This document shows positions 10,846 through 53,790 of a stretch of DNA of 64,000 bases, piece by piece. The notes beneath the pieces are model-generated. The model was not told the origin of the DNA, ran no database searches, and saw only the letters and a program-made list of their open reading frames with translations. A program made the position numbers and the translations under genes. The stretch spans positions 108,645 to 172,644 of the forward strand of contig CALXMT010000002.1 in assembly GCA_944389545.1 (NCBI GenBank). Direction: 5' to 3'. The first letter of the stretch is position 1. Each line of letters begins with the position of its first letter. Origin of the DNA: an uncultured Kiritimatiellota bacterium (lineage in GTDB: Bacteria; Verrucomicrobiota; Kiritimatiellia; RFP12; DVOR01).

Positions 10846-12212
10846 TATTTATCCTCCCCCTGGCGCCACAGGAACGCCACACTCAGGAAAAGTCCCAGGA
10901 AGTCCTCCGCACGTGTTTTGCATTCCATCTTTAGGAAGGTTGCCAGCTTCGCCATGTCCAGCTTTCCTTTCATACCGTCCGTTCGCTCGATGGCGAAAGT
11001 CGTCTCCGCCAAGATAAGATCGGCCAAATCAGACGGCAACTCTCCTTTCAGTCCATAGGGCTGCAACAGTGCGGCCAACTTGTAGGGGAAACGCCCTGCC
11101 ACGTCCTTGCCGCATTGCGCGAAGGCATCAAAGAGGTCCAAACCGCAAGCGTCCCACGCTTCTCCATCTTGCTTGTATTTCCATTTGCTTCCCCACCATA
11201 GGATTTCACCTGACCGCTTGTGGATGGCCAGCGCCAACGCATTGCGGCCATAGGCCTCCTTTGCGCGGTGTTCCGCTTCCCGGGCGCGATTCACCAGTTC
11301 TTGCAAGGGCACGCTCTTGTGCCCGATGGCCACCCCCGCCGAGGCCGTCCCGCCGATCTGCGCGGAGAAATCTGCGGCCAACGCTTTCGCGCATGCCACA
11401 GCCAGATGCGCCGGCAACACTGCCAGCACATCGTCCCCGCCCACGTAGATGGATTGGCCTTGATAGTCTTTGATACGAGCTTCCGCCTTCGGGGCGAAGT
11501 TCAACAACAGTTCGCTGAATGCTTGGTGCTCCGCCTCGGTCTTGAAGGCACTCAAGCGCTTCCCCATTGTGTCGCCGTCCATCATGAGGACCGCCACGTA
11601 ATCGTCTTGTTTCACGGGGTCGTCAAAGGGAGCTTCTTCCGCGTGCAATCGCTTGATCAAGTTCATCGCGCCGAAGCCCAGCTTCTTGTCCAACACCGTC
11701 TCTTTGCCAGAGAGGATGTCCTTTGGATACTTGGTCGCCTCTTCCGGCCATGCGTCAAACTCGCGCGTGTTACGCCGTGCGGCCAACAATGCGCCGATGG
11801 TCTTGTAATCCTGACCCATATCGCCGGAGGGCTCCTCCAGGATTGCCCAAGAGGTTTGCGGGAAGGCCTTCACCTGCAGCAGAAAGGTCCCATCATGCGA
11901 CCACTCTGGGTGCACCTTCAATGCGCTTTCCGCCATTTCTCGCAACGCCGTTCGGAGCGCATCCGCCATCGCGCGCGCTGTTTCCGTAGCTGTTTCGCGC
12001 GGCACAAAGGCCAAGACGCGGTTCGGTAGACCAGGCCCCTCTCGTTTTGCCGGGAAGACCTCTTCGGCGCCCTCGGGCAATACCTTGAGCACTGTCTCTG
12101 TCAACTTTGACAACAAATCCGACCCCGCCCACAAATCTTGCGCGGTCTCGGCCTGTGCGATGAATCCCTGCACAGGCCCAAACTGAAAAAGCAACAACGC
12201 CTTGTCCTTCAC
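10845..12212 (-). CDS. cas10: Cas10/Cmr2, minimal form lacking HD domain, with intact GGDD cyclase palm (GTG start)
   Basis: 455 aa; LLLFQFGPVQGFIAQA (Cas10 post-HD motif), AVLMMDGDTMGKRL (palm metal-binding D) and IYVGGDDVLAVLP (GGDD). No H-HD-H-D motifs. Confidence 0.7.
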   Translation of the reverse strand: MKDKALLLFQFGPVQGFIAQAETAQDLWAGSDLLSKLTETVLKVLPEGAEEVFPAKREGPGLPNRVLAFVPRETATETARAMADALRTALREMAESALKVHPEWSHDGTFLLQVKAFPQTSWAILEEPSGDMGQDYKTIGALLAARRNTREFDAWPEEATKYPKDILSGKETVLDKKLGFGAMNLIKRLHAEEAPFDDPVKQDDYVAVLMMDGDTMGKRLSAFKTEAEHQAFSELLLNFAPKAEARIKDYQGQSIYVGGDDVLAVLPAHLAVACAKALAADFSAQIGGTASAGVAIGHKSVPLQELVNRAREAEHRAKEAYGRNALALAIHKRSGEILWWGSKWKYKQDGEAWDACGLDLFDAFAQCGKDVAGRFPYKLAALLQPYGLKGELPSDLADLILAETTFAIERTDGMKGKLDMAKLATFLKMECKTRAEDFLGLFLSVAFLWRQGEDK

Positions 12213-12225
12213 GGCAAGCCTCCTC

Positions 12226-12684
12226 TCAAATCCGTTTCATCCACCTCAGACGCAACACGTGCCACCCTGTGATTGCCGACGGCGCCGCCGCCTGGCCCGG
12301 GGCCGGTCGGCCTCCCCCTGCCACATCCGGCGACAACACATAACATTCCGCGAAGCATTCCCCGTCCAATTCCGGCAATCCCTCCGCGTTCAACCGCAAT
12401 GCCGGGCGCGGCACCCGCGGCTTCAACGTTCCCGCCGACACCCCCAGAAAGGCCTCCGCCGCACCCTGCGTCTCCGCGTGTCCCCAGAACGACCGAACCA
12501 CCGCCCCAGACGCCAACGCCTCCCGCAAGGTCTCCACCCTTATTTCCTCGATCTCCACACGCCACCCCCGCACCAACGTCAACGGGAAGGTATTTCCAAT
12601 CAACAACGTCCCACTCACGCCTTCGCCTCCCACTTTCCTGGCCTCCAGTTCCGGATGGCCTGGACGACATAATCGTTTGGGCAT
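12226..12684 (-). CDS. hypothetical protein (152 aa) between card1 and cas10; coding status uncertain
   Basis: ATG-initiated ORF in a locally GC-rich 400-bp gap. Overlaps the card1 3' end by ~70 nt and has no recognisable motif. Several alternative frames are also open. Confidence 0.3.
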   Translation of the reverse strand: MPKRLCRPGHPELEARKVGGEGVSGTLLIGNTFPLTLVRGWRVEIEEIRVETLREALASGAVVRSFWGHAETQGAAEAFLGVSAGTLKPRVPRPALRLNAEGLPELDGECFAECYVLSPDVAGGGRPAPGQAAAPSAITGWHVLRLRWMKRI

Positions 12685-13811
12685 GGCATCGGTAACTCTA
12701 GCAACATCAAATTACCGGCATCTTCGATTCGGGTCAATAGGTTTTGATAATCGGTCTCTACGTTTCCTTTGGTGTGCCCCAAGTTCTTGGAGGATGTCAC
12801 CAAGATTCCGCGTCCAAATGTACCACCATACTCATCAACAATATCACTGAATCGCTGAATTTGCTCGGAACTCACATACCCAGACTTACACTCTACAAGG
12901 TAAAGGCAGAATCCATCCGTGAATGAAACGTCAAATTCTTGCCTAGGCACACTTGTATCCTCAAAGGAGATACTTGCACCCCGTTGAAAATCATAACATC
13001 CTGGCAACCGTTTCACTTGACAGAGTACGTATGTCTCCAACCAAAGCCCTGTCACAAAACGGCAGGTCTCGATATCCCCTTTTGTCTGGCGCACGTTACT
13101 CAACAATCTCACACACCGCTCCGTTGCGGCACGGTCACGTGTTTTGTCCAAGAAATGTTTGGCTAAAGCGTCCAAATCTCCAGATAATACAGACTTAGCA
13201 TATTTTTGCATATCGCCTAGATGGTCGCTCATCTTACCGATATAACCACGGAATCCCCATCGATGTGCGCAAAGGGCACCTGCCAATTCCTCTTCTTCTT
13301 GAGAAACACCCCACTCGCCTGGGACGAAGATATCGGAAGAGCAGAGGCGCACGAATTGTTCTACGGTGGAGAATCCGCGTCTCAGATGCACTTCGCGGTC
13401 TCCACCCACATCAAGTACCCTGCGCGACTGTGTGTCTACATAAAAACACGATAATCCCGTCCAAGCATTAACTAAAGACAATGCCATCAGCTTGGTTCCG
13501 CCCGTGACGTTCGCGGCCACGGATTGCCCCTTATACTCCTCGTGTAGAGCAACAAAATCTTCTCGTAGACGCCGTTGGTTATACGAATCCACCAACTTAA
13601 TCGCTATCGGCATTTCGGCAGTGGCAAACACTGACACTAATCGTTTCGCGACCACCTCTGTCTTTTCTGTTGCCAATAAGATATGCGTTTTGGCCGGAAC
13701 ATTCAGAATGGCGAATGCCACCGGTAATTCCTGTTCGCCAATCAAATGCAATACGACATCAAACACAGACAGATTCTCTCCAAGCTTACTCATCGATCGC
13801 TCCTTGCTCAT
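12615..13811 (-). CDS. can2: CARF-domain + PD-(D/E)xK nuclease, Card1/Can2-like cyclic-oligoadenylate-activated effector
   Basis: ~398 aa; N-terminal Rossmann-like CARF with VTGGTKLMALSLVN. C-terminal EFDVSFTDGFCLYLVECKSG supplies the D...ExK catalytic triad. First gene of the cas operon next to the array. Confidence 0.65.
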   Translation of the reverse strand: MSKERSMSKLGENLSVFDVVLHLIGEQELPVAFAILNVPAKTHILLATEKTEVVAKRLVSVFATAEMPIAIKLVDSYNQRRLREDFVALHEEYKGQSVAANVTGGTKLMALSLVNAWTGLSCFYVDTQSRRVLDVGGDREVHLRRGFSTVEQFVRLCSSDIFVPGEWGVSQEEEELAGALCAHRWGFRGYIGKMSDHLGDMQKYAKSVLSGDLDALAKHFLDKTRDRAATERCVRLLSNVRQTKGDIETCRFVTGLWLETYVLCQVKRLPGCYDFQRGASISFEDTSVPRQEFDVSFTDGFCLYLVECKSGYVSSEQIQRFSDIVDEYGGTFGRGILVTSSKNLGHTKGNVETDYQNLLTRIEDAGNLMLLELPMPCPNDYVVQAIRNWRPGKWEAKA

Positions 13812-13847
13812 CAAACATCGTTAATCCTACCCCAAACTCCCAAAAAA

Positions 13848-16394
13848 GTCAACCATCCTCGCCTTTCGGTTGAAGGATGGTTGCGAGTCGTACGGGAAGT
13901 AGGACGACCCCGATGCCCTGTCGCAACGGGCTCTTGGCTGAGGGATGGTTGCGAGCTAAGTCATTGGTACAAGGAAGTCGAGTTGTCGCAACCGCCTTTC
14001 GGCTGAGGGATGGTTGCGAGGGCACGGCTCCCCAAGGAACCTACGTTCTTCAAGGTCGCAACCGCCTTTCGGCTGAAGGATGGTTGTGAGGGAGGGCAAG
14101 CTCTGCGCTCGACTCTCCATCTACGTCGCAACCGCCTTTCGGCTGAAGGATGGTTGTGAGACCATGCCAGAAAGGTATGGAGAGCTCGCCACAAGTCGCA
14201 ACCGCCTTTCGGCTGAAGGATGGTTGTGAGCTTAGTCGAGAAGACTAAGAAATTTTGGAAGGAAGTCGCAACCGCCTTTCGGCTGAAGGATGGTTGTGAG
14301 ATGGTCTCACGGCCTCAACCCGCAGCCCTGCAAAGTCGCAACCGCCTTTCGGCTGAAGGATGGTTGTGAGTCATCATCCACAACGGCTGCCTCACCCGCG
14401 CCGAGTCGCAACCGCCTTTCGGCTGAAGGATGGTTGTGAGTTACATCCAATGGATATGGATTTGATGAGGCTGTGTCGCAACCGCCTTTCGGCTGAAGGA
14501 TGGTTGTGAGACAAGGTCCAAAGAACGATTCATAAGGTCCATGTGTCGCAACCGCCTTTCGGCTGAAGGATGGTTGTGAGTTAAAGGTGTGGACCCCAGC
14601 TCCCTCTCGGAGTCTGTCGCAACCGCCTTTCGGCTGAAGGATGGTTGTGAGCCTATGGCTTTGACGAAAACGCCATCTTCCACATGTCGCAACCGCCTTT
14701 CGGCTGAAGGATGGTTGTGAGTTAAAGGTGTGGACCCCAGCTCCCTCTCGGAGTCTGTCGCAACCGCCTTTCGGCTGAAGGATGGTTGTGAGCCTATGGC
14801 TTTGACGAAAACGCCATCTTCCACATGTCGCAACCGCCTTTCGGCTGAAGGATGGTTGTGAGACTGATGCAGATTGAACTCGCCGCCCTGATGGAGTCGC
14901 AACCGCCTTTCGGCTGAAGGATGGTTGTGAGATGGGTGCCACCAAACCGCTTTCGACTTCTTTGAGTCGCAACCGCCTTTCGGCTGAAGGATGGTTGTGA
15001 GTGTGCGGCTATCCCGTGTTTATCTGTCAGCTGACGTCGCAACCGCCTTTCGGCTGAAGGATGGTTGTGAGCCAACAGAACCCGTTTCATAGATGAGAGC
15101 TCCAGTCGCAACCGCCTTTCGGCTGAAGGATGGTTGTGAGTTCTTGGCCTGGTCGCGTTTGTCGGAACGGATGTGTCGCAACCGCCTTTCGGCTGAAGGA
15201 TGGTTGTGAGTGCGGGGGCCTTGAGCGTCGCCGAGCTTGTCTGTGTCGCAACCGCCTTTCGGCTGAAGGATGGTTGTGAGAGCTCAACGCCCTCCTCAAC
15301 GCGCGCGCCGAGGAGTCGCAACCGCCTTTCGGCTGAAGGATGGTTGTGAGCACGGAGCGCCGGAGGCGCCCAAAAATCGCAGATGTCGCAACCGCCTTTC
15401 GGCTGAAGGATGGTTGTGAGGCCGAAAAGAAGCCCGAGCCCGCCGCCAAGCCTTGTCGCAACCGCCTTTCGGCTGAAGGATGGTTGTGAGACGTCAAGCC
15501 AGTTCGTCGTCGCGTTCTCCTGCGTGTCGCAACCGCCTTTCGGCTGAAGGATGGTTGTGAGTCGGAGGATGGCACCCTCCAGTTGCGCAATCTGGGTCGC
15601 AACCGCCTTTCGGCTGAAGGATGGTTGTGAGGTCACGGAAGAGACCGAGACGCTCTACGAGAGCGTCGCAACCGCCTTTCGGCTGAAGGATGGTTGTGAG
15701 TTGGCGACACCGTCCCCGTCTCCGCCACCGAGACGTCGCAACCGCCTTTCGGCTGAAGGATGGTTGTGAGTGGCCGGCGTGACCGCCAACGACGCCTTGG
15801 TCCGGTCGCAACCGCCTTTCGGCTGAAGGATGGTTGTGAGTCGTCTCCAATGCAGTTCAGTGTCGTGGCTCAAGTCGCAACCGCCTTTCGGCTGAAGGAT
15901 GGTTGTGAGCCGTCCAGAGGCGCGTCGTCCGGCCCTGGTCTGTCGCAACCGCCTTTCGGCTGAAGGATGGTTGTGAGCGGAAAAATCCGCGGCCTCGGCT
16001 CCACCGACGCGTCGCAACCGCCTTTCGGCTGAAGGATGGTTGTGAGTTTCCCCATCGGGCCTCGCCACGATGGGCACCAGGTCGCAACCGCCTTTCGGCT
16101 GAAGGATGGTTGTGAGTCCCGCTCGACGTGCTCATGCTTTGGTTTTCCGAGTCGCAACCGCCTTTCGGCTGAAGGATGGTTGTGAGGGGAATGCCGCATG
16201 ATGCCCTATGACGTTTGCGCGTCGCAACCGCCTTTCGGCTGAAGGATGGTTGTGAGTTGGAGTTAATGGAGACCACTCCGGTGGACATGGTCGCAACCGC
16301 CTTTCGGCTGAAGGATGGTTGTGAGCGCCAAGGCGCAGAAGCTCGCCGAGGAGGCGGGGTCGCAACCGCCTTTCGGCTGAAGGATGGTTGTGAG
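13848..16394 (-). CRISPR. CRISPR array, 37 repeats of 36 bp (GTCGCAACCGCCTTTCGGCTGAAGGATGGTTGTGAG), 36 spacers of 29-37 bp; leader at 16.4-kb end, degenerate repeats at 13.85-kb end
   Basis: Direct repeats every 69-72 bp. The three leftmost repeats are mutated (trailer end) and an AT-richer leader lies right of 16394. Inferred transcription is toward lower coordinates, co-directional with the cas genes. Confidence 0.95.
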
Positions 16395-16631: not shown

Positions 16632-16768
16632 GGCGGACCACTATAGGGTCTCGGTGTGGACCCCTATAAGGGTTGACCGCGGACCCCTATAAGGGTTGGC
16701 CGCGGACCACTATAGGGTCTCATCTGCGACCACTATAGGGGTCGGGGCGGACCCTTATAGGGTCTGAA
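16632..16768. repeat. iteron cluster A: six tandem ~22-bp units with near-palindromic core GACCACTATAGGGTC / GGACCCCTATAAGGGTTG, preceded by AGGGGTGTTGG
   Basis: Read directly from the sequence; cognate cluster at 47262..47400. Confidence 0.8.
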
Positions 16769-16782
16769 GGGCGGCTGGCGCC

Positions 16783-16855
16783 GCCCCGGAGAACGGAGAA
16801 CAGAGAACGGAGAACGGAAACGCCCCTGCGGGGCGACGGGCGAAGCTCCGAGAAG
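16783..16855. repeat. GAGAACR heptad tandem repeat + CCCCTGCGGGGCGACGGGCG module (mosaic intergenic repeat family)
   Basis: Same module at 22622-22735, 25995-26125, 33045-33215, 53487-53600 and inverted at 53700-53765. Confidence 0.7.
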
Positions 16856-16985
16856 ACCAAGCCGCTAAATTTCTAAACTTTTCTAGAGCGTCCTGCGTGC
16901 GGTAGCACGCCATTAATCTGCTCAAAATCTGCGAAAGCTGCGTTTTTCGGAGATTCGGGGTGCAAATGCATGACGGGTGAAGGCG

Positions 16986-17031
16986 GAACCAAACTTCTAA
17001 ACTTCCAAACTTCTAAACTTCTAAACTTCCA
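16986..17031. repeat. AAACTTCY octamer tandem repeat
   Basis: aacttctaaacttccaaacttctaaacttctaaacttcc; related copies at 26245-26275, 33476-33510 and 52600-52630. Confidence 0.7.
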
Positions 17032-17047
17032 TTTGCGGGTGCAAAAA

Positions 17048-17092
17048 AAAGGCCCCCGGGGGGCCGGGGGCTTTTTGGGGAGTGAGGGGTGG
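17048..17092 (-). terminator. Rho-independent terminator of glgP (GC hairpin GGCCCCCGGGGGGCCGGGGGC flanked by A/T runs, bidirectional)
   Basis: Perfect GC stem directly after the glgP stop codon, with an A8 run on one side and a T5 run on the other. Confidence 0.7.
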
Positions 17093-17095
17093 GCC

Positions 17096-19600
17096 TTACT
17101 TGACCTGGAAGGAGGGGAGGTGCCAGATGTCTTCGGCGTATTCGCGGATGGTGCGGTCGCTGGAGAACTTGCCGGCGGAGGCGACGTTCATCAGGGAGGC
17201 TTTGTTCCAGGCGGTCTGGTCGCGGTAGAGGGCTTCGACGCGGTCTTGGGCCTTGATGTAGTCGGGCAGGTCTTTGAGGAGCATGTAGTAGTCGTTGTAG
17301 TCCAGGAGGTTCTGGAGGAGGGGCTCGAAGATTCCGGGGGCCATGAGGGAGAAGACGTTGCGGCGGATCATGTCGAGCGCGCGCTTGATCTCGGGGTTGC
17401 TCTCGTAGATGGCCTTGGAGTTGTAGGTGGGGCGGAGTTTGGCGACTTCTTCGGTTTTGAGGCCGAAGATGACGATGTTGTCGTCGCCGACTTCCTGGGC
17501 GATTTCGACGTTTGCGCCGTCGAGGGTGCCGAGGGTGATGGCGCCGTTGAGCATGAGTTTCATGTTGCCGGTGCCGGAGGCCTCGGTGCCGGCGAGGGAG
17601 ATTTGCTCGGAGACGTCGGCGGCGGGGATGATTTTCTCGGCGAGGGAGACGCGGTAGTCGGGGAGGAAGGCGACGGCGATGCGGCCCTTGACGAGGGGGT
17701 GGGAGTTGACGACGCTGGCGACGCCGTGGATGAGGCGGATGATGAGCTTGGCGACCCAGTATCCGGGGGCGGCTTTGGCGCCGAAGACGAAGACGCGGGG
17801 GTAGACGTCGAGGTCGGGCTTTTCAATCAGGCGATTGAAGAGGATGATGATGTAGAGGACGAGGAGGAGCTGGCGCTTGTACTCGTGGAGGCGCTTGACC
17901 TGGACATCGAAGATGGCGTCGGGGGAAACCTGGAAGCCGAGGGTGTTGAAGATGGTGTTGGCGAGGATTTCCTTGTTGGCGCGTTTGATTTCGGCGAAGC
18001 GCTTGAGGAAGGCTTTGTCGTTGACCTTGGCTTTGAGCTTGGAGAGCTGGCTGAGGTCGGTGACCCAGCCGTCGCCGATGGTCTCGGTGATGAGGGCGGC
18101 GAGGCGGGGGTTGGCCTTGAGGAGCCAGCGGCGCTGGGTGATGCCGTTGGTCTTGTTGGAGAAGTGGGTGGGCATGATCTCATAGAAGTCCTTGAAGATG
18201 GTCTTCTTGAGGATCTCGGTGTGGAGTGCGGCGACGCCGTTGACGGCGGAGGTGCCGACGAGGCAGAGGTTGGCCATGCGGACGAATTTATCGCCGCTTT
18301 CGTCGATGAGGCTCATGCGGGCGAGGCGGGCGACGTCGCCGGGGAAGAGGGTGGCGACCTGCTGGAGGAAGCGTGCGTTGATCTCGTAGATGATCTGCAT
18401 GTGGCGGGGGAGGACGCGCTCCATGAGGGGGACGGGCCACTTTTCGAGGGCTTCGGGGAGGACGGTGTGGTTGGTGTAGCCGGTGCAGGCGCGGACGTAG
18501 GTCCAGGCGTCGTCCCAGGTGAGGCCTTCGACGTCCACGAGGATGCGCATGAGCTCGGGGATGACGAGGGTGGGGTGGGTGTCGTTGAGCTGGATGAAGA
18601 CGTACTTGGGGAGGTGGCGCCATTCGTGGCCTTCCTCGCGGAAGCGGCGGAGGATGTCGTGGACGGAGGCGGCGACGAAGAGGTATTGCTGGCGGAGGCG
18701 GAGCTCTTTGCCGGCGGTGGTGGAGTCGTTGGGGTAGAGGACTTTGGTGAGGTTCTCGGCGAGGACTTTGCTTTCGACGGCTTCGACGTAGTCGCCGCGG
18801 TTGAATTCGTCGAGGGAGAATTCGTTGGTGGCTTTGGCGCTCCAGAGGCGGAGGGTGGAGACGGTTTTGCCTTGGTAGCCGACGATGGGGAGGTCGTAGG
18901 GGACGGCCTGGACCTGTTGCGCGGGGACCCAGACCCATTCGTCGCGGCCGGTGCGGCCGGTGTAGTGCTCGACGTGGCCGCCGAAGCCGATGAGGCAGGC
19001 GTATTCGGGGCGCTGGATTTCCCAGGGGTAGCCGTATTTCAGCCAGTTGTCGGGCTCTTCGCGCTGTTCGCCGTTGACGATGCGCTGGCGGAAGATGCCG
19101 TAGTCGTAGCGCAGGCCGTAGCCGGTGGCGGGGAGGTTGAGGGTGGCGAGGGAATCCATGAAGCAGGCGGCGAGGCGGCCGAGGCCACCGTTGCCGAGGC
19201 CGGCGTCCATCTCGTAGTCGCGGAGGCGGTTCCAGTCCAGGCCGAGGGAGTCCATGGCTTCGCGGCACTGCTGCTCGAGGCCGAGGTTGATGACGTTGTT
19301 GCCGAGGAGGCGGCCGATAAGGAACTCGAGGGAGAGGTAGTAGACGCGGCGGACCTTGGCGGCGCGGTAGGCGTCTTGGGTGGCCATCCAGCGGTCGACG
19401 ATGCGGTCGCGCACGGCATAGGCGAGGGCTTTGTAGCAATCGCGTTCGGTGGCTCGGTCGCCGCTCTTGGCGAGGGAGAAACGCATGTTCCAGAGGAAGT
19501 CCTGGGCGAGGCCCTCGGCGGTGAACTCAGCGGAGGGGTGGTTGCCGGGCAGGACGACCTTTTCGGTGGTTTTGTCCTTGGTCTTGGTGGACGTGCTCAT
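17096..19600 (-). CDS. glgP: glycogen/maltodextrin phosphorylase
   Basis: 834 aa; EFLIGRLLGNN, NGGLGRLAACFMDSLATL and the pyridoxal site EASGTGNMKLMLNGA. Confidence 0.95.
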   Translation of the reverse strand: MSTSTKTKDKTTEKVVLPGNHPSAEFTAEGLAQDFLWNMRFSLAKSGDRATERDCYKALAYAVRDRIVDRWMATQDAYRAAKVRRVYYLSLEFLIGRLLGNNVINLGLEQQCREAMDSLGLDWNRLRDYEMDAGLGNGGLGRLAACFMDSLATLNLPATGYGLRYDYGIFRQRIVNGEQREEPDNWLKYGYPWEIQRPEYACLIGFGGHVEHYTGRTGRDEWVWVPAQQVQAVPYDLPIVGYQGKTVSTLRLWSAKATNEFSLDEFNRGDYVEAVESKVLAENLTKVLYPNDSTTAGKELRLRQQYLFVAASVHDILRRFREEGHEWRHLPKYVFIQLNDTHPTLVIPELMRILVDVEGLTWDDAWTYVRACTGYTNHTVLPEALEKWPVPLMERVLPRHMQIIYEINARFLQQVATLFPGDVARLARMSLIDESGDKFVRMANLCLVGTSAVNGVAALHTEILKKTIFKDFYEIMPTHFSNKTNGITQRRWLLKANPRLAALITETIGDGWVTDLSQLSKLKAKVNDKAFLKRFAEIKRANKEILANTIFNTLGFQVSPDAIFDVQVKRLHEYKRQLLLVLYIIILFNRLIEKPDLDVYPRVFVFGAKAAPGYWVAKLIIRLIHGVASVVNSHPLVKGRIAVAFLPDYRVSLAEKIIPAADVSEQISLAGTEASGTGNMKLMLNGAITLGTLDGANVEIAQEVGDDNIVIFGLKTEEVAKLRPTYNSKAIYESNPEIKRALDMIRRNVFSLMAPGIFEPLLQNLLDYNDYYMLLKDLPDYIKAQDRVEALYRDQTAWNKASLMNVASAGKFSSDRTIREYAEDIWHLPSFQVK

Positions 19601-22524: not shown

Positions 22525-22621
22525 ATTGCCTATAATTTTAGCAAAACCGCATGCCATTCGGCAAAACTTTTAGTGCATTTCCAATCGTCTCCGGGGAATT
22601 TCCACAAAGACGATTTGGGCG

Positions 22622-22860
22622 GCTTATGCCGCCCCGGAGAACAGCGAACGGAGAACAGAGCGTGCAGGCCCAGAGGGCCAAACCTTCCACGGCCACGGAA
22701 CGCCCCTGCGGGGCGACGGATGGAGTTCCCAAGAAAATGATAAGGCACGAAACGGAGGGCGTCGGTCGCGGTCAGCGGTGAAGCCGTCGTCCAATCAGCT
22801 AATCAGCTGGATGCTCCGCTAGAGCACCCTTTCTTCGCGGTTTCCATTTTCCCGGACACA
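22622..22860. repeat. mosaic intergenic repeat: GAGAACR heptads + partial MITE-like element with one TIR (CGCGGTTTCCATTTTCCCGGACA)
   Basis: Shares modules with 25995-26262, 33045-33215 and 52462-52795. Confidence 0.65.
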
Positions 22861-22863
22861 ATT

Positions 22864-22895
22864 CATCCCTAGGGGCACGCGTGCCCTTAGGGATG
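22864..22895 (-). terminator. hairpin CCCTAGGGGCACGCGTGCCCTTAGGG downstream of second sigma gene
   Basis: Imperfect palindrome directly after the stop codon at 22913. Confidence 0.5.
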
Positions 22896-22912: not shown

Positions 22913-24580
22913 TCAGCGTTCGCCGAGGAAGCCGTCGAGTTTCTTGATGCGCGAGGGGTGACGGAGCTTGCGCAGGGCCTTGGCTTCGATTTGGCGGATG
23001 CGCTCGCGCGTGACGTTGAATGCCTTGTTGACCTCGTCGAGGGTGTGCACGACGCCGTCCGTGAGGCCGTAACGCATATCGAGGACCTCGCGATCGCGCT
23101 CATTGAGAACAACGAGTACTTCGCGCAGACGCTCTTTGAGTTGGGCGAAGGCGGCGGCATCCTCGGGGCGCTCGGCGTCTTCGCCGTCGTCAACGGGGCT
23201 CTGCAGGGAGCTGGGTTGCTGGGCCATGCGGCAGATGTTGCGGATGCGTTCGACGGGCATGCCCATTTCCTCGGCGGTCTCCTCCGGAGTGGGCTCGCGG
23301 CCGAGTTCCTGGAGAAGCTTCTTCTGCGCACGGAGGAGCTTGTTGATGGTCTCAATCGTGTGCACGGGGATGCGGATGGTGTGGGCTTGGTCGCCGGTGG
23401 CACGGGTGAGGGTCTGGCGGATCCACCAAGTGGCGTAGGTGGAGAACTTGTAGCCGCGCTTGTACAGGTCCACGAACTTCTCGACGGCCGTCATGAGACC
23501 GGTGTTACCCTCTTGGATGAGCTCGAGGAGGCTGAGACCGCGGTTCATGAACTTCTTGGCGATGGAGACGAGAAGGCGGAGGTTCGCCTCGATCACTTTA
23601 CTTCGGTTCTGGGTAATCAAGTGGAGTGCTTGGCGAAGCTCTTTGAACTTCTCCATGAAGAGGTCAGCGGGCATGCCGAGGGCCTGTTCGGCCTCATCTC
23701 GGGCGGCTTCGGCCTTGGCGACATGCTGGGCCTTAGTCTTGCTCTCGGCCTTCTGGGCCTTTTTGAGAGCCGCGATGGCGCTGGCGTAGGGCTTGTAATA
23801 GCACTTCTCCGCTTCGATGCAGATGTCCTCCAGTATCTTTTGCTTGAAGTGGAGCGAGTCGTACTTGGTACGCAACGCCTCGCACAAGGCTTCGATTTGC
23901 TTGTCAGCCTTGTCCAGGGCGTCGGTGTCCTCGGGATTGAGATTGGCGCGGGCCATGTAGGCCTCGGCCATGCGGTCGCCCAAGCGGTTGAGCGCCTCTT
24001 GCTCCGGGTGCATCGTCTCGACGTACTCGTCGCGTTTCTTGTCGGTCTTGGCGACCACGCGGTTGAACCTCTCGCGGCCGGCCTCCAGGTCGCTCAAGAC
24101 TTGGGCGTAGAGGCGCGGGGCCATGGGCAACTGGTTGAAGACCTCGAAGATGACCCTTTCGCCGGCCTCGATGCGCTGGAAGATTTCCACCTCCTGCTCG
24201 CGCGTCAGTAGGGGCACTTTGGAAATTTGGCGCAGGTAGATGCGGATGGCGTCGTCGCAGTGATCCTCGCGTTTGGCGGAGGCCTCCCCCTTATATTCAT
24301 CGAGCGCGTCCAAATCTTTCTGGTCGTGGGCCCTCTTGGCTTCTTTTTCGGATTCGTTGAAGACCGCGCGCAGGACAGACCCTTCGCACAGACCGTCGAG
24401 GGACTCCTCGTCGTCGGCCATGTCCTCCGCGTCGGTGTACGCATTGTCTAGCGATTCCTTCTCGAGGTCCATCCTCGAGTCGGCGACGGCAGGCTTTTGG
24501 GGCTCAGTTTCCGGTTTGTCTTGCTTCGTAGCCATAGGTGAGAAACGCTCCTTGGGGGTGTTCGGTTGGTTTTGCCACAA
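22913..24580 (-). CDS. second sigma-70 family factor, RpoD paralog (tandem to rpoD)
   Basis: 555 aa; C-terminal 300 aa nearly identical to the upstream RpoD (…[34 protein letters not shown]) with a divergent N-terminus. Confidence 0.85.
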
Positions 24581-25974: not shown

Positions 25975-26265
25975 TCACAAAAAGGTAATCGTGGGGCACC
26001 TCGGGTGCCCCGGAGAACGGAGAACAGAGAACGGAGAACGGGAGGGACGCTGACGCGTCCCGGAGAACAGAGAACAGAGAACAGAGAACAGAGCGCGCGG
26101 CAAGCGCGCGACGGGTGGGGTTTCTGGAAATTGACCAGACGCGAAACGGAGGGCGGCGGGCGCGGTCAGCGGCGGAGCCGCAGAGCGACCGATGGAGCCC
26201 GAGGCGTTTCGCGCCCACAGTTGCGTCTTTGCGGTCTCATTTCAATGAAAGACCAAGCCTCTAGA
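25975..26265. repeat. mosaic intergenic repeat: GGGGCACC-TCG-GGTGCCCC hairpin, GAGAACR heptads, GCGCGCGGCAAGCGCGCGACGGGTGGGG module, partial MITE-like element with TIR
   Basis: Near-identical modules at 53487-53600, 33045-33215 and 22622-22860. Confidence 0.7.
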
Positions 26266-33039: not shown

Positions 33040-33215
33040 AAGTCGGGCGCAGACGCGCCCCGGAGAACAGAGAACAGAGAACAGAGCGTGCAGGCCCAAA
33101 GGGCCAAACCTTCCACGGCCACAGAACGCCCCTGCGGAGCGACGGGCGGAGCGGTGGGAGGGTGTGGAAGATTTACCCTGCGGGGCTGACACGAAGAACA
33201 CGAAGGACCACAAAG
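33040..33215. repeat. mosaic intergenic repeat (GGGCGCAGACGCGCCC hairpin, GAGAACA heptads, CAGGCCCAAAGGGCCAAACCTTCCACGGCCAC module)
   Basis: Same module at 22640-22735 and a partial copy at 33395-33475. The hairpin can serve as the trkH terminator. Confidence 0.65.
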
Positions 33216-33512
33216 ACACACGAAGGACTGCCAGAATAGGGGACCGCAGATGTTGCTTCGTTTCGCTCGAAAGACCTTCGGGAGTTGCAGATTTTGGCAA
33301 ATTAAGGGCGTACTATCGCACGCAGGACGCGTGATTGGAAGTTTGGAGGCTTGGACAGGTTCCACGCTACGCGACTATCACAAAGGACTCAAAGAAGCAC
33401 CGTGCAGGCGCAAAGCGCCAACCTCCCACGGCCACAGTGAACGGAACACCCCTGAGGGCGATGGGCGGAGCCGAAACTCAAGCCTCTGAGCTTCCAAATT
33501 TCTATTTGGGGA

Positions 33513-39875: not shown

Positions 39876-40117
39876 AATTACTCACCATTTTAGCAAACCA
39901 TGCCGCCTTCGTGCCCGTTGCTTTTTTGTAAGCAATAGTATCCGGGGAAATCGACAAGCCTCCTTTTCCCGCAAAAACGCCAATGTGCGCGAAGCCAGAT
40001 GGGCTAACGCCGGTCGCTTTGCGGGCTAAACGCCCGCTGATCGCACCCTCCCGCCCATCGTCTTCGCGCTTGGGCCGTCTTAAGAAGTCCTTTTGGCGCA
40101 GGGAAGTGGGGCGCGGG

Positions 40118-40140
40118 AGGGCGCACGACCGTGCGCCCGG
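40118..40140 (-). terminator. hairpin GGGCGCACG-ACC-GTGCGCCC after arginase-family gene
   Basis: Perfect 9-bp GC stem; a solo MITE TIR lies at 40168-40206 between it and the arginase-family gene stop at 40239. Confidence 0.5.
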
Positions 40141-40238
40141 CGTTAGCGCCCCACTTTTCCTGCAAGATTTGCGTCTTTGCGGTCTCCATTTTCCCCGGAC
40201 ATATTGTTTTGTAAACGAGCGTCACTTGCTGGACGCGC

Positions 40239-47213: not shown

Positions 47214-47261
47214 TACTTACGCGACGCCTCTGCCCTGGAAAAGGGGTGTTGGAGAAACCCT

Positions 47262-47400
47262 TAAGGGTCCGAGGTGAGACCCTATAGTGGTCGGGGTCGA
47301 GACCCTATAGTGGTCGGGGTCGAGACCCTATAGTGGTCCATGGTCGACCCCTATAGTGGTCCAGAACGAACCCTTAAGGGGTCCGCAACAGACCCCTTGC
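47262..47400. repeat. iteron cluster B: six tandem ~22-bp units (core GACCCTATAGTGGTC, flanking AACCCTTAAGGGGTCC), preceded by AGGGGTGTTGG
   Basis: Cognate of the cluster at 16632-16768; followed 12 bp later by a solo MITE TIR at 47412-47455. Confidence 0.8.
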
Positions 47401-47499
47401 TCTCGTACAAACCAATAGTGTCCGGGGAAAAAGAGATGGACCGCAAAGACGCAACTCTTGCAGGAAGATGAGGCGTCATTGAATCTTCTAAGTTTCTTG

Positions 47500-47640
47500 T
47501 GCGCCTGGGGTTGTTTCCAAAGAAATGATGGAAACACAAGGGAAGGGCACGGTAGAGAGGCCGTAAGGCCGAACGGTGAAGTGCCCAGGCCCTTGTGTTC
47601 CTTTCGTGTTTTCGTGGAAACATCCTCGGACAGTGTTGGC
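47500..47640 (+). ncRNA. candidate structured RNA / cis-regulatory leader upstream of PNPOx/Nim gene
   Basis: Nested helices are visible: GTTTCCA..TGGAAAC, ACAAGGG....CCCTTGT enclosing GGGCAC..GTGCCC and a GGCC-GUAA-GGCC tetraloop hairpin, then GTTCC..GGAAC. Lies in the untranslated gap before 47702. Confidence 0.3.
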
Positions 47641-48184: not shown

Positions 48185-48512
48185 TAGATGCCGATAAAGT
48201 GTAAACCCGCAAAGCGACCGGTGTTACTCCATCCGGCGTCGCGTGTACTGGTGTCTTCGCGGAAAGACTTCCTCGAATGCTCTTGTGCTTGACGGGGTGG
48301 TGCGGGATGATATAAACTAACCACATCAGTACGAAGGGACTCGTAAATGGCGTTCACTGCAATGTGTTTGAAGCTTGGCGTTGTGGCGATGCTCACGGCG
48401 CAGGGCAACGCCGTGCGGAGGGCGTTTGTGTGGGATTTCACGAAGCCGGTTGCCACACTGCCCTTTTCGTTGAGATAGGTGCAGTGGGTGAAGTCAACGT
48501 CACGACTGTTGA

Positions 48513-49661
48513 TTGGTGTCACTGATGAAGAAGTCGCAATCACGGAGGACGCATCGAGGTAAAGTGGCCTCGTTGTTGCTTCGTGTCGTGCTTGTCATCT
48601 TTGCTTTGTGTGCAACGATAACGCTCTATCTTGTACATGACGAGACGATGCGTGAACGCCGCAATGCACCCCAGCGGGAAGTCGAGGTGCACGAATTGTT
48701 GCAGGTTCGTGAGGGAGGTGTTTTTCCACCACGGGTACAGGACCAACCTTGTCTGCGGACAAGTGATGGTGAGATTGTGCATTGGGAGGCTTCATTGGGA
48801 GAGTTGGCGGAGTTTTGCCGCCAGGGATTGCCCTTTAGGATGAACGTGTATGAGATGTATGGAGGGCTGTATTATTATTCTTCTTATGCAGCCAGAGGGT
48901 GGTTGATTTTCTCGATGTCCTTGTTTCTTTTCTCTTTACACATTCTGTTTTGGCCTGTCAAACGGTCGAAAGTGGAACCCGTCGCTTGTATATCCAAGCG
49001 GGGAGCTTCCATTGGCATGGCCGTTACGGACAAGATAACGTTTGACCTGTCTCAACACGAGCGTCGTCGCCGTATTGTGTTCCAAGTAGTGATTCAGGGT
49101 GCCTTTGCCGTCCTCTTCGTCGGGTGGATGACGTATGCATGGGGATGGTCTTGGTTATTGTTGGCGGTAGCGCTTCCGGTTTTACTGAGCACGGCGCTTG
49201 TTTGTTGGCCAGACGCTCTCGTCCGTTTCATAGGTGGGGCGTTACTCCTATGCGTTCCCTTTTTGGCAGAGGCTTTCGGACACGGTTTGTATTGGCGGGA
49301 AACGACGCGTATTGAAGCAATTCCGCGATATGTGCGCTACGACATGAGCCATTCTGCCGACAAAAAGCATGGGGCGCCTGAGGAGGTTTACGAAGTGCTC
49401 TTCAGCTATGATTGGGCGGGAAGAGAACGTTATGGGTTTATACGCCTTCGCTCAAATCAAGCCGCAGAATGTGCTTTGATCCGTCAGTTGAGAGGGGGTC
49501 ACCTTCAATTGTTGCGTGATCAGTCGCCTGAGGGTCGCTTTTTTGCCTTTGACGCGGCTTGGGCCATCAGCCAACTTGTCAGTGGGGCGGGCGCGCTCTT
49601 TTGCTTCTTGTGCGGAGGTGCCATGCTCTTGCTGGGGCAGAAGAAGCGGAGGACCGAATGA
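48513..49661 (+). CDS. hypothetical polytopic membrane protein (low-GC island)
   Basis: 382 aa with at least 5 TM segments and no recognisable motif. Local GC is ~42-50% versus ~67% background. Confidence 0.45.
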   Translation: MVSLMKKSQSRRTHRGKVASLLLRVVLVIFALCATITLYLVHDETMRERRNAPQREVEVHELLQVREGGVFPPRVQDQPCLRTSDGEIVHWEASLGELAEFCRQGLPFRMNVYEMYGGLYYYSSYAARGWLIFSMSLFLFSLHILFWPVKRSKVEPVACISKRGASIGMAVTDKITFDLSQHERRRRIVFQVVIQGAFAVLFVGWMTYAWGWSWLLLAVALPVLLSTALVCWPDALVRFIGGALLLCVPFLAEAFGHGLYWRETTRIEAIPRYVRYDMSHSADKKHGAPEEVYEVLFSYDWAGRERYGFIRLRSNQAAECALIRQLRGGHLQLLRDQSPEGRFFAFDAAWAISQLVSGAGALFCFLCGGAMLLLGQKKRRTE

Positions 49662-49893
49662 GACGGAACGCGCGGAACCAGAACATTGCCATCGCCCCCT
49701 TCGGCGCTGTCATCCGTATCCTTCAGGCATTTGAGAGGGTACACCAATGATGTACGTAAAAGAACTTGCCCCAAAAGAGTGGACGCTTCGATTCTGGTTG
49801 CATGGGCCACTGGCAACCCTTCGGGAGTGGAGGCATGAACGGGTCGAGTAGCATGGAAGACCGCAAAGATGGGTTTATGAGTGGAAGGACTAC

Positions 49894-50376
49894 TTGTTCA
49901 ACCTTATCGCAGGACTTCCTATTTTCCTGCTAGGATGTGGTCTATTCTATTATCATGCCTGTGTGGAAGAGAGTATCGCGGTTGGCGTTGTGGTGGCTGC
50001 TATCCCTTTTTGCGGAGGGGCGTGGATGGTTCTGGCTCCTCTTCGCTCTTGGCTTGGGCATTTCGCCCTTCATTATTATCTGACGCCATCAACAATCCTT
50101 GTCGTTTTCAGGTTTCTCTTCTTCAGCGTTTCCCTGTCCGCCCCAAAGCAAAGGATTGGCTTTGTTCTGATTGATCGGTATGAGGAGGTGGCCGTCATCA
50201 AGTTCGCGAATCTTTCGTTTACCCCCGTTGATAGACTTGATGATATCACCGTAGAACTGAAGTTTTATGGGTTGACCTTGTCTGATTGCCTGGCGTTGCG
50301 GTCTTATTTCAGCGGTAAGGCGTTTTATGTCTCCGGTGAGCATCCGGATGAGTATAAGGCGTACCGCGGCGGTTGA
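49894..50376 (+). CDS. hypothetical membrane-anchored protein (low-GC island)
   Basis: 160 aa with two N-terminal TM helices then a small soluble domain. Confidence 0.4.
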   Translation: MFNLIAGLPIFLLGCGLFYYHACVEESIAVGVVVAAIPFCGGAWMVLAPLRSWLGHFALHYYLTPSTILVVFRFLFFSVSLSAPKQRIGFVLIDRYEEVAVIKFANLSFTPVDRLDDITVELKFYGLTLSDCLALRSYFSGKAFYVSGEHPDEYKAYRGG

Positions 50377-50500
50377 CAAGTGTTGGTGAGCGGTGTATCC
50401 TATGAAACATGAGGATGATGTCTATGGGAACCGCATCAAGACGGCGACCTTCTTGGATAAGGAAGGGAATGGGACATCGTGGTTGAATAAGTGAGGCGGA

Positions 50501-51718
50501 GTGGCTTTCATGAGATTCGTGATTTTATTGCTTGGGTTTTGTTTGACTGGCTTGTCTTGGGCCTCGTGTGTGCAATTCATATGGATTGATGAAGACGGCA
50601 ATGAGGTAGAGCTCCCTATTGGGCCAACGTTTTATGAACGCTTTTCAAGAGGGATGGATAGAGAAACTGTCGCTCAAGCCCTGAATGAAGGGTGTCCCAG
50701 ACGAACACGAGAAATCTCGTTCGAGGAGGCATGTGCGGAGTTTTTCGACCTGAGGCAATCGGTTCCTTTTCTATTTAGGGAAGGGCGCACTGTCACGGCC
50801 TATCAAGAAATCCCTGTAGAGAATCAGCGTGGCGGCTCCTTGCCGCAGAGCGATGTGGATGAGGAGCAATTTTACTTCTTTATATTTGATGAACAGGGGC
50901 AACTGACAGATGCGGTTGAAGTACCGCAGAACAGAGGGGAACCGCTCTTCTTCATAGAGGGCGAATTTGTCGATGAACTATTATCCCTCAAGCAAGGCGA
51001 GGAATCAGAGGCGGTGTTTGCGAGATTCGGGACCCGTCGGCCAATCCAGCATTTGCAAACGCAAGATGGGCGATGGTATGTTATCTATAACTATGAGTGT
51101 GTCGCAAATGGGCGACGCGGGGTCTTTTGCAGGGTATGGATTGGTGGCGGTACGGGGCGAGTGGAGTATGTCGAAGGAGGAATGCTAGGTCGAAAATGGA
51201 CCGGTGGGCAATCTGACGCGAAAGATGTGGAGGCCATTTTGCAGGAAGCCATCCGTGAATGTGAGAGGAAATCAGGAGGTCAGTGGAAGGAATCCTTAGA
51301 CACTGTGCGGTTACGATTGGTTTTATCCCGTTACCGGAGTGAGTCAGGCAAGGTCTCCGCGGATGACGAGAGAGGGCTTTGCCAACAGGTTGAACGCATA
51401 CTGGTCAAGGAAAGCAAAGACGCTGCGAGCGATGCCGCAAGTGGTTTCGGGAGTGATTTGGTCGCGGCGCGTCTGCGCGAGAGACTGACGCGGTTTAGGT
51501 GCGAAGAAAGCCAGACGCTTTATTCGCTTTTCCCCGGTGACACGGTTGATTTGTCGCCTTTGTTGTGGGAACATCGGCGTGCGGCGGAAGCGCTTGTCAA
51601 ACTGTCGTATCAAGCGTATCAAGCCGGGACGATAGACGAACGAGAGTTCATAGATGCGCTCTTATTGTTGAACCCTCCTTCTCCCCGTATCGTTCCGGAG
51701 ACAGAGGATACATTATAG
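50501..51718 (+). CDS. hypothetical secreted/lipoprotein (low-GC island)
   Basis: 405 aa; signal peptide MAFMRFVILLLGFCLTGLSWASC (possible lipobox) and an acidic domain with no known motif. Confidence 0.45.
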   Translation: MAFMRFVILLLGFCLTGLSWASCVQFIWIDEDGNEVELPIGPTFYERFSRGMDRETVAQALNEGCPRRTREISFEEACAEFFDLRQSVPFLFREGRTVTAYQEIPVENQRGGSLPQSDVDEEQFYFFIFDEQGQLTDAVEVPQNRGEPLFFIEGEFVDELLSLKQGEESEAVFARFGTRRPIQHLQTQDGRWYVIYNYECVANGRRGVFCRVWIGGGTGRVEYVEGGMLGRKWTGGQSDAKDVEAILQEAIRECERKSGGQWKESLDTVRLRLVLSRYRSESGKVSADDERGLCQQVERILVKESKDAASDAASGFGSDLVAARLRERLTRFRCEESQTLYSLFPGDTVDLSPLLWEHRRAAEALVKLSYQAYQAGTIDEREFIDALLLLNPPSPRIVPETEDTL

Positions 51719-51883
51719 TCAGAAGAAGCAACGAACATGTCTATGCTGACACGTTTTGGAGTTTCGTCAAATCGCGCAATGATACGGTCGCCTCGCAGTA
51801 CAACGATATGAACAATCTGCTCGGCCACCCTGTGTGGATGTGCTAAAGCAAGGGTGATGGGATAACCAAGGAGGAGCGGTGAT

Positions 51884-52354
51884 ATGCACGTTTACCTCAA
51901 GTATGGGTTTGTGCTTTTCCCTACAGAGCAGATGAAGTTGACGAGATTGTCGAGCGAAGGTGTTTATTTGTACAGTGGTTGCATCTTATCCCATCTGTTT
52001 GGAAACGCTCGGGGTCGGTCATGGGTTGTATTTTCACGTAATCGTGTACGTCTTCATGGTGTGACACCGTTCAATAGCGGGAGCATGGATTACTGTTTTT
52101 CCAAAAGGGAGATTCGATCCATCTATACAAACGATTCGCCCTCCGTTCCTTTCTTGGGGACGGGCTATGGGCTCGATTCGAGGCCTCCGTTTCTGACAAG
52201 AATGTATTATTTTTATACCGCTCCAGCGCTCAGATATCGATGGCCTATGCGGTACAGGTTTCTGATCATCGAGATGGTATCCTTCTATATCCTCATGTTT
52301 GTCGAGTCTGAACGTGAAGTGCGTCTATATCAAGAGCAGCTCAAAAAACGATAA
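51884..52354 (+). CDS. hypothetical protein (low-GC island)
   Basis: 156 aa, Tyr/Arg-rich, C-terminal hydrophobic helix. Confidence 0.35.
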   Translation: MHVYLKYGFVLFPTEQMKLTRLSSEGVYLYSGCILSHLFGNARGRSWVVFSRNRVRLHGVTPFNSGSMDYCFSKREIRSIYTNDSPSVPFLGTGYGLDSRPPFLTRMYYFYTAPALRYRWPMRYRFLIIEMVSFYILMFVESEREVRLYQEQLKKR

Positions 52355-52461
52355 AGATTCTCTTAAATGGCAATCTCGCAGATTGTTTGTCCTTGGTGAA
52401 GAATGCGGTTGTCAAATAACCGCACTTCCCTTGCTCTTTGACAATGGCATCGTGTTTGTGG

Positions 52462-52795
52462 CAATAGTGTCCGGGGAAGTTTTACCGCGAAAACGGTCTT
52501 GCGTGGAAACCCTGCGGGCTCCATCGCTCCCGTTGGTCGCGCCGCCCTTGGGGTTTCCACGCTATCGCGCCCCTGAAGGGGCGCTCAAAAGGGGAATGAG
52601 GAAGTTTGGAAGCTTGGAAGTTCAGCTTTTACGGTGGGGCTTCGCCTCACATCCTCTACATTCCTTACTTCAAGGCGCGAAACGGAGGGCGGCGGTCGCG
52701 GTCAGCGGCGAAGCCGCAGAGCGACCGATGGAGCCCGAAGCGGTTCGCGCCAATTGTTGCGTCTTTGCGGTTCCCATTTTCCCCGGACAGTATTG
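52462..52795. mobile_element. MITE-like non-coding element copy 2, complete, with ~38-bp terminal inverted repeats CAATAGTGTCCGGGGAAnnTTTnCCGCGAAAACGG... / ...TTGCGTCTTTGCGGTTCCCATTTTCCCCGGACAGTATTG
   Basis: TIRs read directly from the sequence. The interior matches 5698-6055 (reverse complement), and fragments or solo TIRs occur at 22745-22860, 26115-26262, 40168-40206 and 47412-47455. No ORF of transposase size. Confidence 0.7.
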
Positions 52796-52834
52796 TGTTT
52801 GTGGTGGGCGATTGACCCGAGCGTGGTCTTATTA

Positions 52835-53464
52835 TTATAGAGCGGGGAGGAGGGCGATGAGGCGGCGGGCGAGGTCGAGTTTGGAGAGGAGGGGGAGGGC
52901 CTCGCGGCGGCCATCGGGGTAGAGGAGGGTGACGCGGTTGGTCTCGACGGCGAAACCGGCTCCGGGAGCGGTGACGTCGTTGGCGACGATGAGGTCGAGG
53001 CCCTTTTCACGGAGTTTGCGCCCGGCCTCGGCGGTCGGTTCGCCGGTTTCGGCGGCGAAGCCGATGAAGCGGCGGTTCCCCTTTTGGGGACGGATGGTCT
53101 TGAGGATGTCGGGATTGGGGACGAGGCGGAGGACGCCGTTCATGCCGGACTTTTTGAGTTTGGTGGAGGAACAGGTCTCGGGACGCCAGTCGGCGACGGC
53201 GGCGGAGGCGATGAGGACATCGGCCTGAACCAGTTCACGCTGGACGGCGGCAAGCATATCGCGGGCGGTAACGACATCGACACGGCGGACGTTGGGCGGG
53301 GTGGGGAGCTCAACGGGGCCGGCGATAAGGGTGACGGTGTGGCCGGCCTCGGCGGCGGCCTGGGCAATGGCGAAGCCCATACGGCCGGTGGAACGGTTGG
53401 AGAGGAAGCGAACGGGGTCAATGGGCTCGCGCGTAGGGCCGGCGGTGATGAGGATGTGTGACAT
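52835..53464 (-). CDS. coaB: phosphopantothenate--cysteine ligase (CoaB domain only)
   Basis: [27 protein letters not shown]...[10 protein letters not shown] is the CoaB signature; 209 aa with no CoaC flavoprotein half. Confidence 0.8.
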
Positions 53465-53486: not shown

Positions 53487-53790
53487 GCCTGAAGTTAAGG
53501 AGAACGGAGAACAGAGAACGGAGAACGGAGCGCGCGGCAAGCGCGCGACGGGTAGGGTGGAGGGAGAACAGTGGAATGTTTGCCTTGCGGGGCTGACACG
53601 AAGGGGCACGAAGAACCACGAAGGTCTACAGAGAAAGAACGTATACGGCTTGACGGGACGTGCCACAAAGGGAACGAGGACGTTCGCCCGTCGCCCGTAA
53701 GGGCGTTCTGTTCTCTGTGGCCGTGGAAGGTTTGTCCCTTCGGGCCTGCACGCTCCGTTCTCTGTTCTCTACTAAGTCGGGCTGGCCCGA
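53487..53790. repeat. mosaic intergenic repeat (GAGAACR heptads, GCGCGCGGCAAGCGCGCGACGGGTAGGG, inverted partner module) ending in hairpin AGTCGGGCTGGCCCGACT that can terminate panD
   Basis: Near-identical to 25995-26125; the hairpin at 53766-53786 sits just after the panD stop. Confidence 0.65.

Follow-up and report, generated by a model that had tools for sequence, protein, structure and literature searches.

The 64-kb stretch of DNA analysed here (hereafter the window) carries a family of small non-coding units with inverted ends and a 9-bp target duplication, which are very probably prokaryotic MITEs and for which we infer movement in trans by a DDE transposase. Whole small units insert and duplicate 9 bp of their target, and at least one such insertion (copy D) differs between strains that are 98-99% identical to each other.

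Copies and ends of the element in the window

We identified five repeat-bounded copies in the window (A to E, 226-342 bp) together with one fragment (F), whose coordinates are listed in Table 1, instead of the two full copies of the original prediction; a search of the window with all end types returned no further copy. BLAST of copy A against the window recovered, besides B, pieces at 22.7, 26.1, 40.1 and 47.4 kb, that is, at the positions at which solo terminal repeats or halves had been noticed earlier. One of these pieces (26115-26262) is a true fragment, now delimited as F (26137-26250), while those at 22745-22860, 40168-40206 and 47412-47455 turned out to be the ends of the complete copies C, D and E, respectively. 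Copy B, formerly placed at 5698-6055, is the reverse complement of A as described (87% identity over 5748-6051), with its ends moved to 5721 and 6062 and with damage to both cores instead of one end only: one core has a 9-nt insertion, and the other has substitutions and an 11-nt tandem duplication. Copies A, C, D and F share one orientation, and B and E have the opposite one. Each of the six is located between called genes, which bears out the claim that they are always intergenic, and they often directly follow the 3' end of a gene or separate co-directional genes. The GC content of the elements is about 60%, compared with 62% for the window, and that of E is 51%. The interior of C includes a GC-hairpin/heptamer-repeat module and a partial M3 module, and C is present in all the strains sampled; D has 95.8% identity with a copy from Ca. 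Spyradenecus faecavium; and the pairing of ends seen in E recurs in locus L008 of another genome.

Table 1. Positions in the window of the element copies, of the duplications flanking A and D, and of the R-type end and M3 module of copy A
Feature	Position	Strand	Description
Copy A	52462-52795	+	complete 334-bp element, from L-type end to R-type end
Target-site duplication of A, left copy	52453-52461		TGTTTGTGG, 9/9 identical to 52796-52804
Target-site duplication of A, right copy	52796-52804		TGTTTGTGG
R-type end of A	52758-52795	-	CAATACTGTCCGGGGAAAATGGGAACCGCAAAGACGCAA; bipartite, 17-nt core plus ACCGCAAAGACGCAA
Module M3	52674-52751	+	78-nt GC-rich hairpin beside the R-type end; most conserved internal piece of the family
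Copy B	5721-6062	-	342 bp, both terminal cores damaged, no target-site duplication
Copy C	22582-22864	+	283 bp, degenerate cores (2 and 3 mismatches), no target-site duplication
Copy D	39933-40206	+	274 bp, polymorphic insertion; core with 1 mismatch on the left and a 1-nt deletion on the right
Target-site duplication of D, left copy	39924-39932		TTTTGTAAG
Target-site duplication of D, right copy	40207-40215		TTTTGTAAA, 8/9
Copy E	47413-47638	-	226 bp; R-type end at 47413, "E-type" end at 47638 (core 13/17); no target-site duplication
Fragment F	26137-26250	+	M3 and the inner part of the R-type end, no terminal core

The terminal arms of copy A (52462-52478 and 52779-52795, reading CAATAGTGTCCGGGGAA and TTCCCCGGACAGTATTG, respectively) are 94% complementary, with the 17-nt core inverted at 16 of 17 positions. 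Allowing up to three mismatches, the core CAATAGTGTCCGGGGAA has six matches in the 64-kb window against 0.08 expected, a number that none of 100 dinucleotide-preserving shuffles reached. Both the alignment of the arms and the core count therefore uphold the terminal inverted repeats proposed for 52462-52795, a proposal that hung on the arms being inverted copies of each other. Their proposed length of 38 bp holds in part, since 17 nt are firmly inverted, whereas the rest is only a looser second block (ACCGCRAARACG), with about 27 of 38 positions matching in A and weaker agreement in the remaining copies. In copy A this second block, inward of the core, reads ACCGCGAAAACG on the left and ACCGCAAAGACG on the right, and the two match each other loosely. 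The "38-bp TIR" is thus better described as a bipartite end, which consists of the 17-nt core, a short variable spacer and a second 12-nt motif, ACCGCRAARACG.

Copy A has no coding capacity, in agreement with the original prediction: the 207-aa ORF that crosses it is related solely to short ORFs of 64-198 aa, which were called across other copies, and no Pfam domain was found in this ORF or its relatives. Folded as single-stranded DNA, the whole copy reaches -96 kcal/mol (z = -8.66 against shuffled sequence). Copy A was found in every strain sampled, and in strain L017 the insertion lacks 161 internal bp (52536-52696) beside short GGTCGCG repeats. Four independent contigs and one short Logan contig terminate within copy A, as one would expect where a repeat is present in multiple copies, and the family explains assembly breaks in intergenic regions of these bacteria.

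Target-site duplications and strain comparison

Nine complete copies from the window and related genomes could be compared for flanking duplications, and four of them have 9-bp duplications that match at eight or nine positions, namely, A (9/9), D (8/9) and two complete copies in another genome, L010 (9/9, TCGCTGAAG/TCGCTGAAG) and L013 (8/9, (C/T)ATATATTC); no recognisable duplication was seen at the other five. As the chance of a match at eight or more of nine fixed positions is 28/4^9, or about 1e-4 per element, four out of nine copies with a duplication is decisive. A check for duplications had been proposed at the two copies then regarded as full; it came out in favour at A, with the perfectly repeated TGTTTGTGG, B has none, and further examples are D, L010 and L013.

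Over 20.6 kb, the window and the ENA contig BRZ_FB NODE_450 are 100% identical, and the same species occurs in many other assemblies at 97-99% identity. Strains were compared at the sites of individual copies, and this comparison gave the strongest evidence for transposition. Copy D is absent from three strains that are 98-99% identical (L023, L025 and L026), in which the arginase gene is separated from the next gene by 81 bp, compared with 364 bp where D is present. The alignment of these D-less strains breaks exactly at the ends of D, and the target TTTTGTAAG is present just once in their empty site (gcttTTTTGTAAGcgagcg). D therefore inserted precisely and recently, as a 274-bp unit that duplicated 9 bp of its target. 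This makes copy D a recently active strain-level marker in uncultured gut bacteria of the PVC group, and the exact ends together with the 9-bp duplication could be used to trace the transposase that moves the elements.

In strains L030, L031, L033 and L034, site B is occupied at the same junction by a different sequence of about 398 bp that begins with its own core, CAGTAGTGTCCGGGGAA, and intergenic sites such as B evidently turn over quickly. A second strain-level indel concerns a segment of about 167 bp at 33212-33378, which belongs to another repeat family (ACACGAAGGAC ... GCAGATTTTGGCA ...), has the flanks CACGAAGGAC/CACAAAGGAC and is absent from L026 and L029; a related sequence fills site B in L030. 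A TTTGT-containing 9-mer lies beside an end in four copies of the window (A, B, D, and E read on the other strand), which hints at a target preference for TTTGT. We also noticed the motif TGCTCTykkACAA 2-25 nt outside an end of A, B and E (52432-52444, 6086-6098 on the minus strand and 47399-47411, respectively); it has no further match in 513 kb comprising the window and the loci, where about one is expected by chance, and may be a target signal or a nested repeat, or else flanking sequence that was carried along. The sequence TGTTT(G/A)(T)GG beside an end is common to A and B.

Architecture of the family and alternative readings

The elements range from 226 to 342 bp in the window and from 232 to 465 bp in related loci. 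Their ends start with 5'-CAATAGTGTCCGGGGAA, and the second short motif ACCGCRAARACG follows 3-10 nt further inward. Every complete copy that we examined in the window and in other genomes has the R-type end CAATAGTGTCCGGGGAAAATGG-nn-ACCGCAAAGACGCAA, although it is degenerate in C and damaged in B, while the opposite end has the same core in at least four versions (A-type, D-type, E-type and C-type). Module M3 is carried by A, B, F and many copies in other genomes, and partially by C; the segment formed by M3 and the R-type end occurs in 14 distinct copies in the window and two named related genomes, with about 88-98% identity over the aligned stretch. In contrast to this end, the middles of the elements vary, and they are built of modules that are also free-standing in intergenic DNA, e.g., GC hairpins flanking runs of GAGAACA/CGGAGAA heptamers. 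Short runs of these heptamers bracketed by GC-rich hairpins are located in the window at 16787-16822, 22637-22660, 26011-26093, 33063-33086 and 53499-53530, and form a separate intergenic family that is also seen in the middle of copy C and of copies in other genomes.

Since a constant R-type end is combined with several versions of the other end and a mosaic interior, the family diversifies as elements undergo internal deletion, exchange modules and receive nested insertions, and older copies lose their duplications and terminal cores. As the interiors are mosaics common to other repeats, some of the "copies" may be products of recombination that did not transpose as a unit. A more far-reaching explanation of one constant end, mostly with the M3 hairpin, and free exchange of the rest would be an undescribed or unusual transposase family that needs one structured end and a minimal 17-nt core opposite to it, or that M3 is a functional RNA or DNA signal of the host or the element; in either case, routine deletion within an ordinary insertion sequence would not suffice to account for the family. 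We consider this unlikely. If it were true, the flank motif TGCTCTykkACAA and the TTTGT targets could reflect sequence-directed targeting.

It is very unlikely that the elements are mosaic intergenic repeats of the REP/BIME or BOX type, whose modules would be shuffled by recombination, gene conversion or a RAYT-type enzyme, with the "TIR" being one more module. Such a reading would account for the interior modules that also stand alone (GC hairpins with GAGAACA/CGGAGAA arrays, 23-bp tandem repeats and ACACGAAGGAC-type units), for the five of nine copies without duplications, for the different contents of site B between strains at one junction, and for the flank motif that A, B and E share outside the element. 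However, inverted cores, four duplications matching at 8-9 of 9 positions and a precise empty site are signatures of DDE transposition that REP/RAYT spread and recombination do not yield, and there is no Y1/RAYT or other transposase domain among the genes called in the window region. REP/BIME sequences are palindromic units of 20-40 nt without duplication, accompanied by a RAYT gene in the genome; we rejected them as the identity of the present elements, which have inverted termini and 9-bp duplications and no Y1 transposase domain among the window-region genes. The BOX/RUP/SPRITE clusters of Streptococcus pneumoniae and the BIMEs of E. coli are likewise small and intergenic, and they cluster, nest and form mosaics, but BOX and BIME units have neither terminal inverted repeats nor target duplications, whereas the present elements have both.

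Less probable still is the view that the elements, or at least the M3 hairpin, are functional structured RNA or DNA signals, such as a small RNA, an attenuator or a terminator, which are under selection and only secondarily mobile. The very stable fold of copy A (z = -8.66), the conservation of M3 between genomes (about 88-98% identity over the aligned stretch) and the frequent position of copies directly after the 3' end of a gene or between co-directional genes are in its favour. On the other hand, Rfam gave no match on the whole window at the gathering threshold, nor on 52400-52860 even at E<=1, and copy A has no sigma-70-like promoter or intrinsic-terminator consensus. The M3 consensus folds at -39.3 kcal/mol, yet compensatory changes are seen in 0 of 26 pairs, a count to which strong weight cannot be attached as the copies are too similar; moreover, the orientation of the copies with respect to the neighbouring genes is inconsistent, with B and E inverted relative to A, C, D and F. 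The least probable reading, namely that the units are dead relics, i.e., decayed ends of former full-length insertion sequences that are no longer mobile as small units, could draw on the lack of any autonomous copy and on the degenerate ends of B, C, E and F, all without duplications, but since D entered an 81-bp spacer as a 274-bp unit in one sub-lineage of a 98-99% identical population, and A and L010 have perfect 9/9 duplications, the small units themselves transposed recently.

Transposase, distribution and genomic surroundings

For prokaryotic MITEs mobilised in trans, the reading that we prefer, the mechanism would be as follows. The two bipartite ends, each with a 17-nt core and a second motif, look like transposase-binding ends; a full-length insertion sequence elsewhere, bounded by the same ends, would code for a DDE-type transposase, which would bind both ends of the element, cut the target with a 9-bp stagger and join the element in, and gap repair would then create the 9-bp duplication. 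No transposase Pfam domain was found among the genes called across the window region, so the transposase would be located elsewhere, if it still exists. There was also no transposase near the two of the 49 ORF-cluster members (see below) that we looked up, and no core pairs more than about 500 bp apart, as a sign of an autonomous partner, in 45 related loci (about 0.6 Mb). Multi-copy insertion sequences usually remain unassembled in MAGs, and thus the missing autonomous partner is weak evidence.

Insertion sequences with a 9-bp duplication are known in the IS4-type, IS5/IS903-type, IS256, ISAs1 and ISLre2 families, and those of ISAs1 have ends beginning with CAGGG and a duplication of 8-10 bp. 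We rejected ISAs1 as the parent: its duplication length is compatible, but the flanks of the E. coli K-12 yhhI H-repeat (CAGGGAAAGAT/CAGGGCAAGAT), the one copy checked, share just CA(G) with CAATAGTGTCC/CAGTAGTGTCC. A composite transposon bounded by E and A around the island at 48-52 kb was also rejected, since the outer flanks (CGTACAAAC versus TGTTTGTGG) form no duplication and A has its own. The genes of this low-GC island (48200-52400, 50-53% GC versus 62%) code for predicted membrane proteins and orphan proteins (382, 160, 405 and 156 aa) that neither Pfam nor PADLOC matched; in L041, a relative with 90% identity, the gene for the 405-aa protein is kept, but after it come a Type ISP restriction enzyme and a PDDEXK/AAA gene. 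The end of the L041 contig was considered as the end of an autonomous element and discarded, as the sequence after the core matches the CRISPR-leader region of other strains, so that it is a solo core beside a leader. The loci concerned are L041 18146-18273 (the end of a 144,741-bp contig), L035 860-980 and L008 1-110; the perfect solo core is followed by leader-like GGCCAAATCGAAAAGTAATTGC... and by two GGTGTCCTAAnGAGGG repeats, which gives the appearance of a truncated MITE end placed against a CRISPR leader.

Using the bipartite R-end pattern, an exact scan of 185,579 species-representative genomes detected 13 loci, 12 of them in the MAG "uncultured Kiritimatiellaeota bacterium BRZ_KQ__bin80" and one in Candidatus Spyradenecus faecavium. 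The flanks of these loci are unrelated to the window, and the repeats alone match, with about 74-98% identity depending on the module and the match length. When the reading frame open across A served as a protein query, 49 clusters of short spurious ORFs were returned, all from ENA assemblies, so the family is widespread across these samples. For the genome-wide abundance proposed earlier, the evidence comprises the 12 exact-pattern hits in one related MAG and these 49 clusters. The DFP protein beside the element is about 78% identical to that of one named Candidatus Spyradenecus sp., a genus that NCBI places under Lentisphaerota in the PVC group. The same pattern scan gave two matches in JGI metagenome contigs, both due to chance and otherwise unlike the element, and none in viral contigs, and a distant blastn search with copy A found no match in plasmid and phage collections. 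In a relative with 84% nucleotide identity in the DFP region the core is absent from three 20-kb loci; thus the distribution is patchy even among close lineages. Neither a clean empty site for A nor a transposase was found in the orthologous loci reached via the neighbouring DFP gene, and in the 90%-identity relative the homology ends 22 bp short of A. No gene of the window has an orthologue in the MITE-bearing loci that we fetched, and the high identity between copies of different genomes may reflect horizontal transfer or conservation. The spacers of the CRISPR array in the window gave only 15-nt chance matches to the element and all the loci. One narrow literature query, combining Kiritimatiellae and transposable elements, returned no description of such an element.

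The family shows the structural features of prokaryotic MITEs, with a length below 500 bp, terminal inverted repeats, a duplication in younger copies, no coding capacity, and dispersed polymorphic copies. MITEs are common in bacteria and the category is not new, but the family itself is without match in Rfam and in the plasmid and phage collections. Tn3-derived TIMEs have ends of about 38 bp that start with GGGG and 5-bp duplications; this end length resembles the 38 bp originally given for the terminal repeats, and TIMEs were rejected because the ends here start with CAATAG and the duplication is 9 bp. The Correia element was likewise rejected as the identity of the family. The present elements would count as "type II" MITEs if identity with the parent were confined to the ends. 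In published descriptions, MITEs are small, repeat-bounded and intergenic, with decaying duplications, a stable fold and truncated relatives, and are typically shorter than 500 bp and AT-rich (PMC10969869); the GC content of about 60% sets the present family apart in the last respect. The closest in behaviour is MITEAba12 of Acinetobacter, a 113-bp element of 78% AT with 16-bp repeats, 9-bp duplications kept by about 40% of copies and the co-resident parent ISAba12 (PMC6382973): both are non-coding and have inverted ends and 9-bp duplications, which are kept in 4/9 (44%) of the copies here, whereas the present elements are 226-465 bp long, GC-rich (about 60%), bounded by a 17-nt core with a second motif, and without sequence similarity to it. 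The closest in size variability are QMITE1/QMITE2 of Coxiella and Chunjie of Geobacter, which vary in size and sequence and have conserved ends, direct repeats of 7-9 bp (QMITE2), stable folds, truncated copies and intergenic or 3'-UTR locations (PMC10969869). They share with the present family the many truncated copies with lost ends, although the sequences and hosts are unrelated and here one end is constant while the other occurs in several versions. The family thus departs from the textbook MITE in being GC-rich and in having one constant end with a conserved hairpin module beside it, and this GC-rich modular build around one constant end makes it genuinely, if slightly, odd among the described prokaryotic MITEs.

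Several other features were noticed in the window and in related strains. A type III-B cassette (Cmr2, Cmr3, RAMPs and Cmr5) and a Card1-type CARF nuclease, at 6337-13814, adjoin a CRISPR array at 13985-16394, which comprises 35 repeats of 36 nt (GTCGCAACCGCCTTTCGGCTGAAGGATGGTTGTGAG) and 34 spacers of 32-35 nt; the contig BRZ_FB NODE_450 begins at the last repeat of this array, at about position 16359 of the window. Tandem 23-bp units with the palindrome GACCACTATAGGGTC / GACCCTATAGTGGTC are located at 16633-16765 and 47254-47364, and also in L004, L006 and L039; these arrays have 88-92% identity with those of other genomes, and one of them lies directly beside copy E. Relative to position ~4130 of the window, L030/L031 have at 16883-17683 an extra gene for a 266-aa DnaB_C/AAA_25 protein between dnaB and the Omp85 (BamA-like) gene, which is absent from the window and from L032. 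The gene for a sigma-70 paralogue beside copy C (540 aa, 22913-24580 on the minus strand) is called as three pieces (304, 124 and 115 aa) in L023 (17457-19069) and L027 (8870-10482), so that some of the population may carry a frameshifted or pseudogenised allele.
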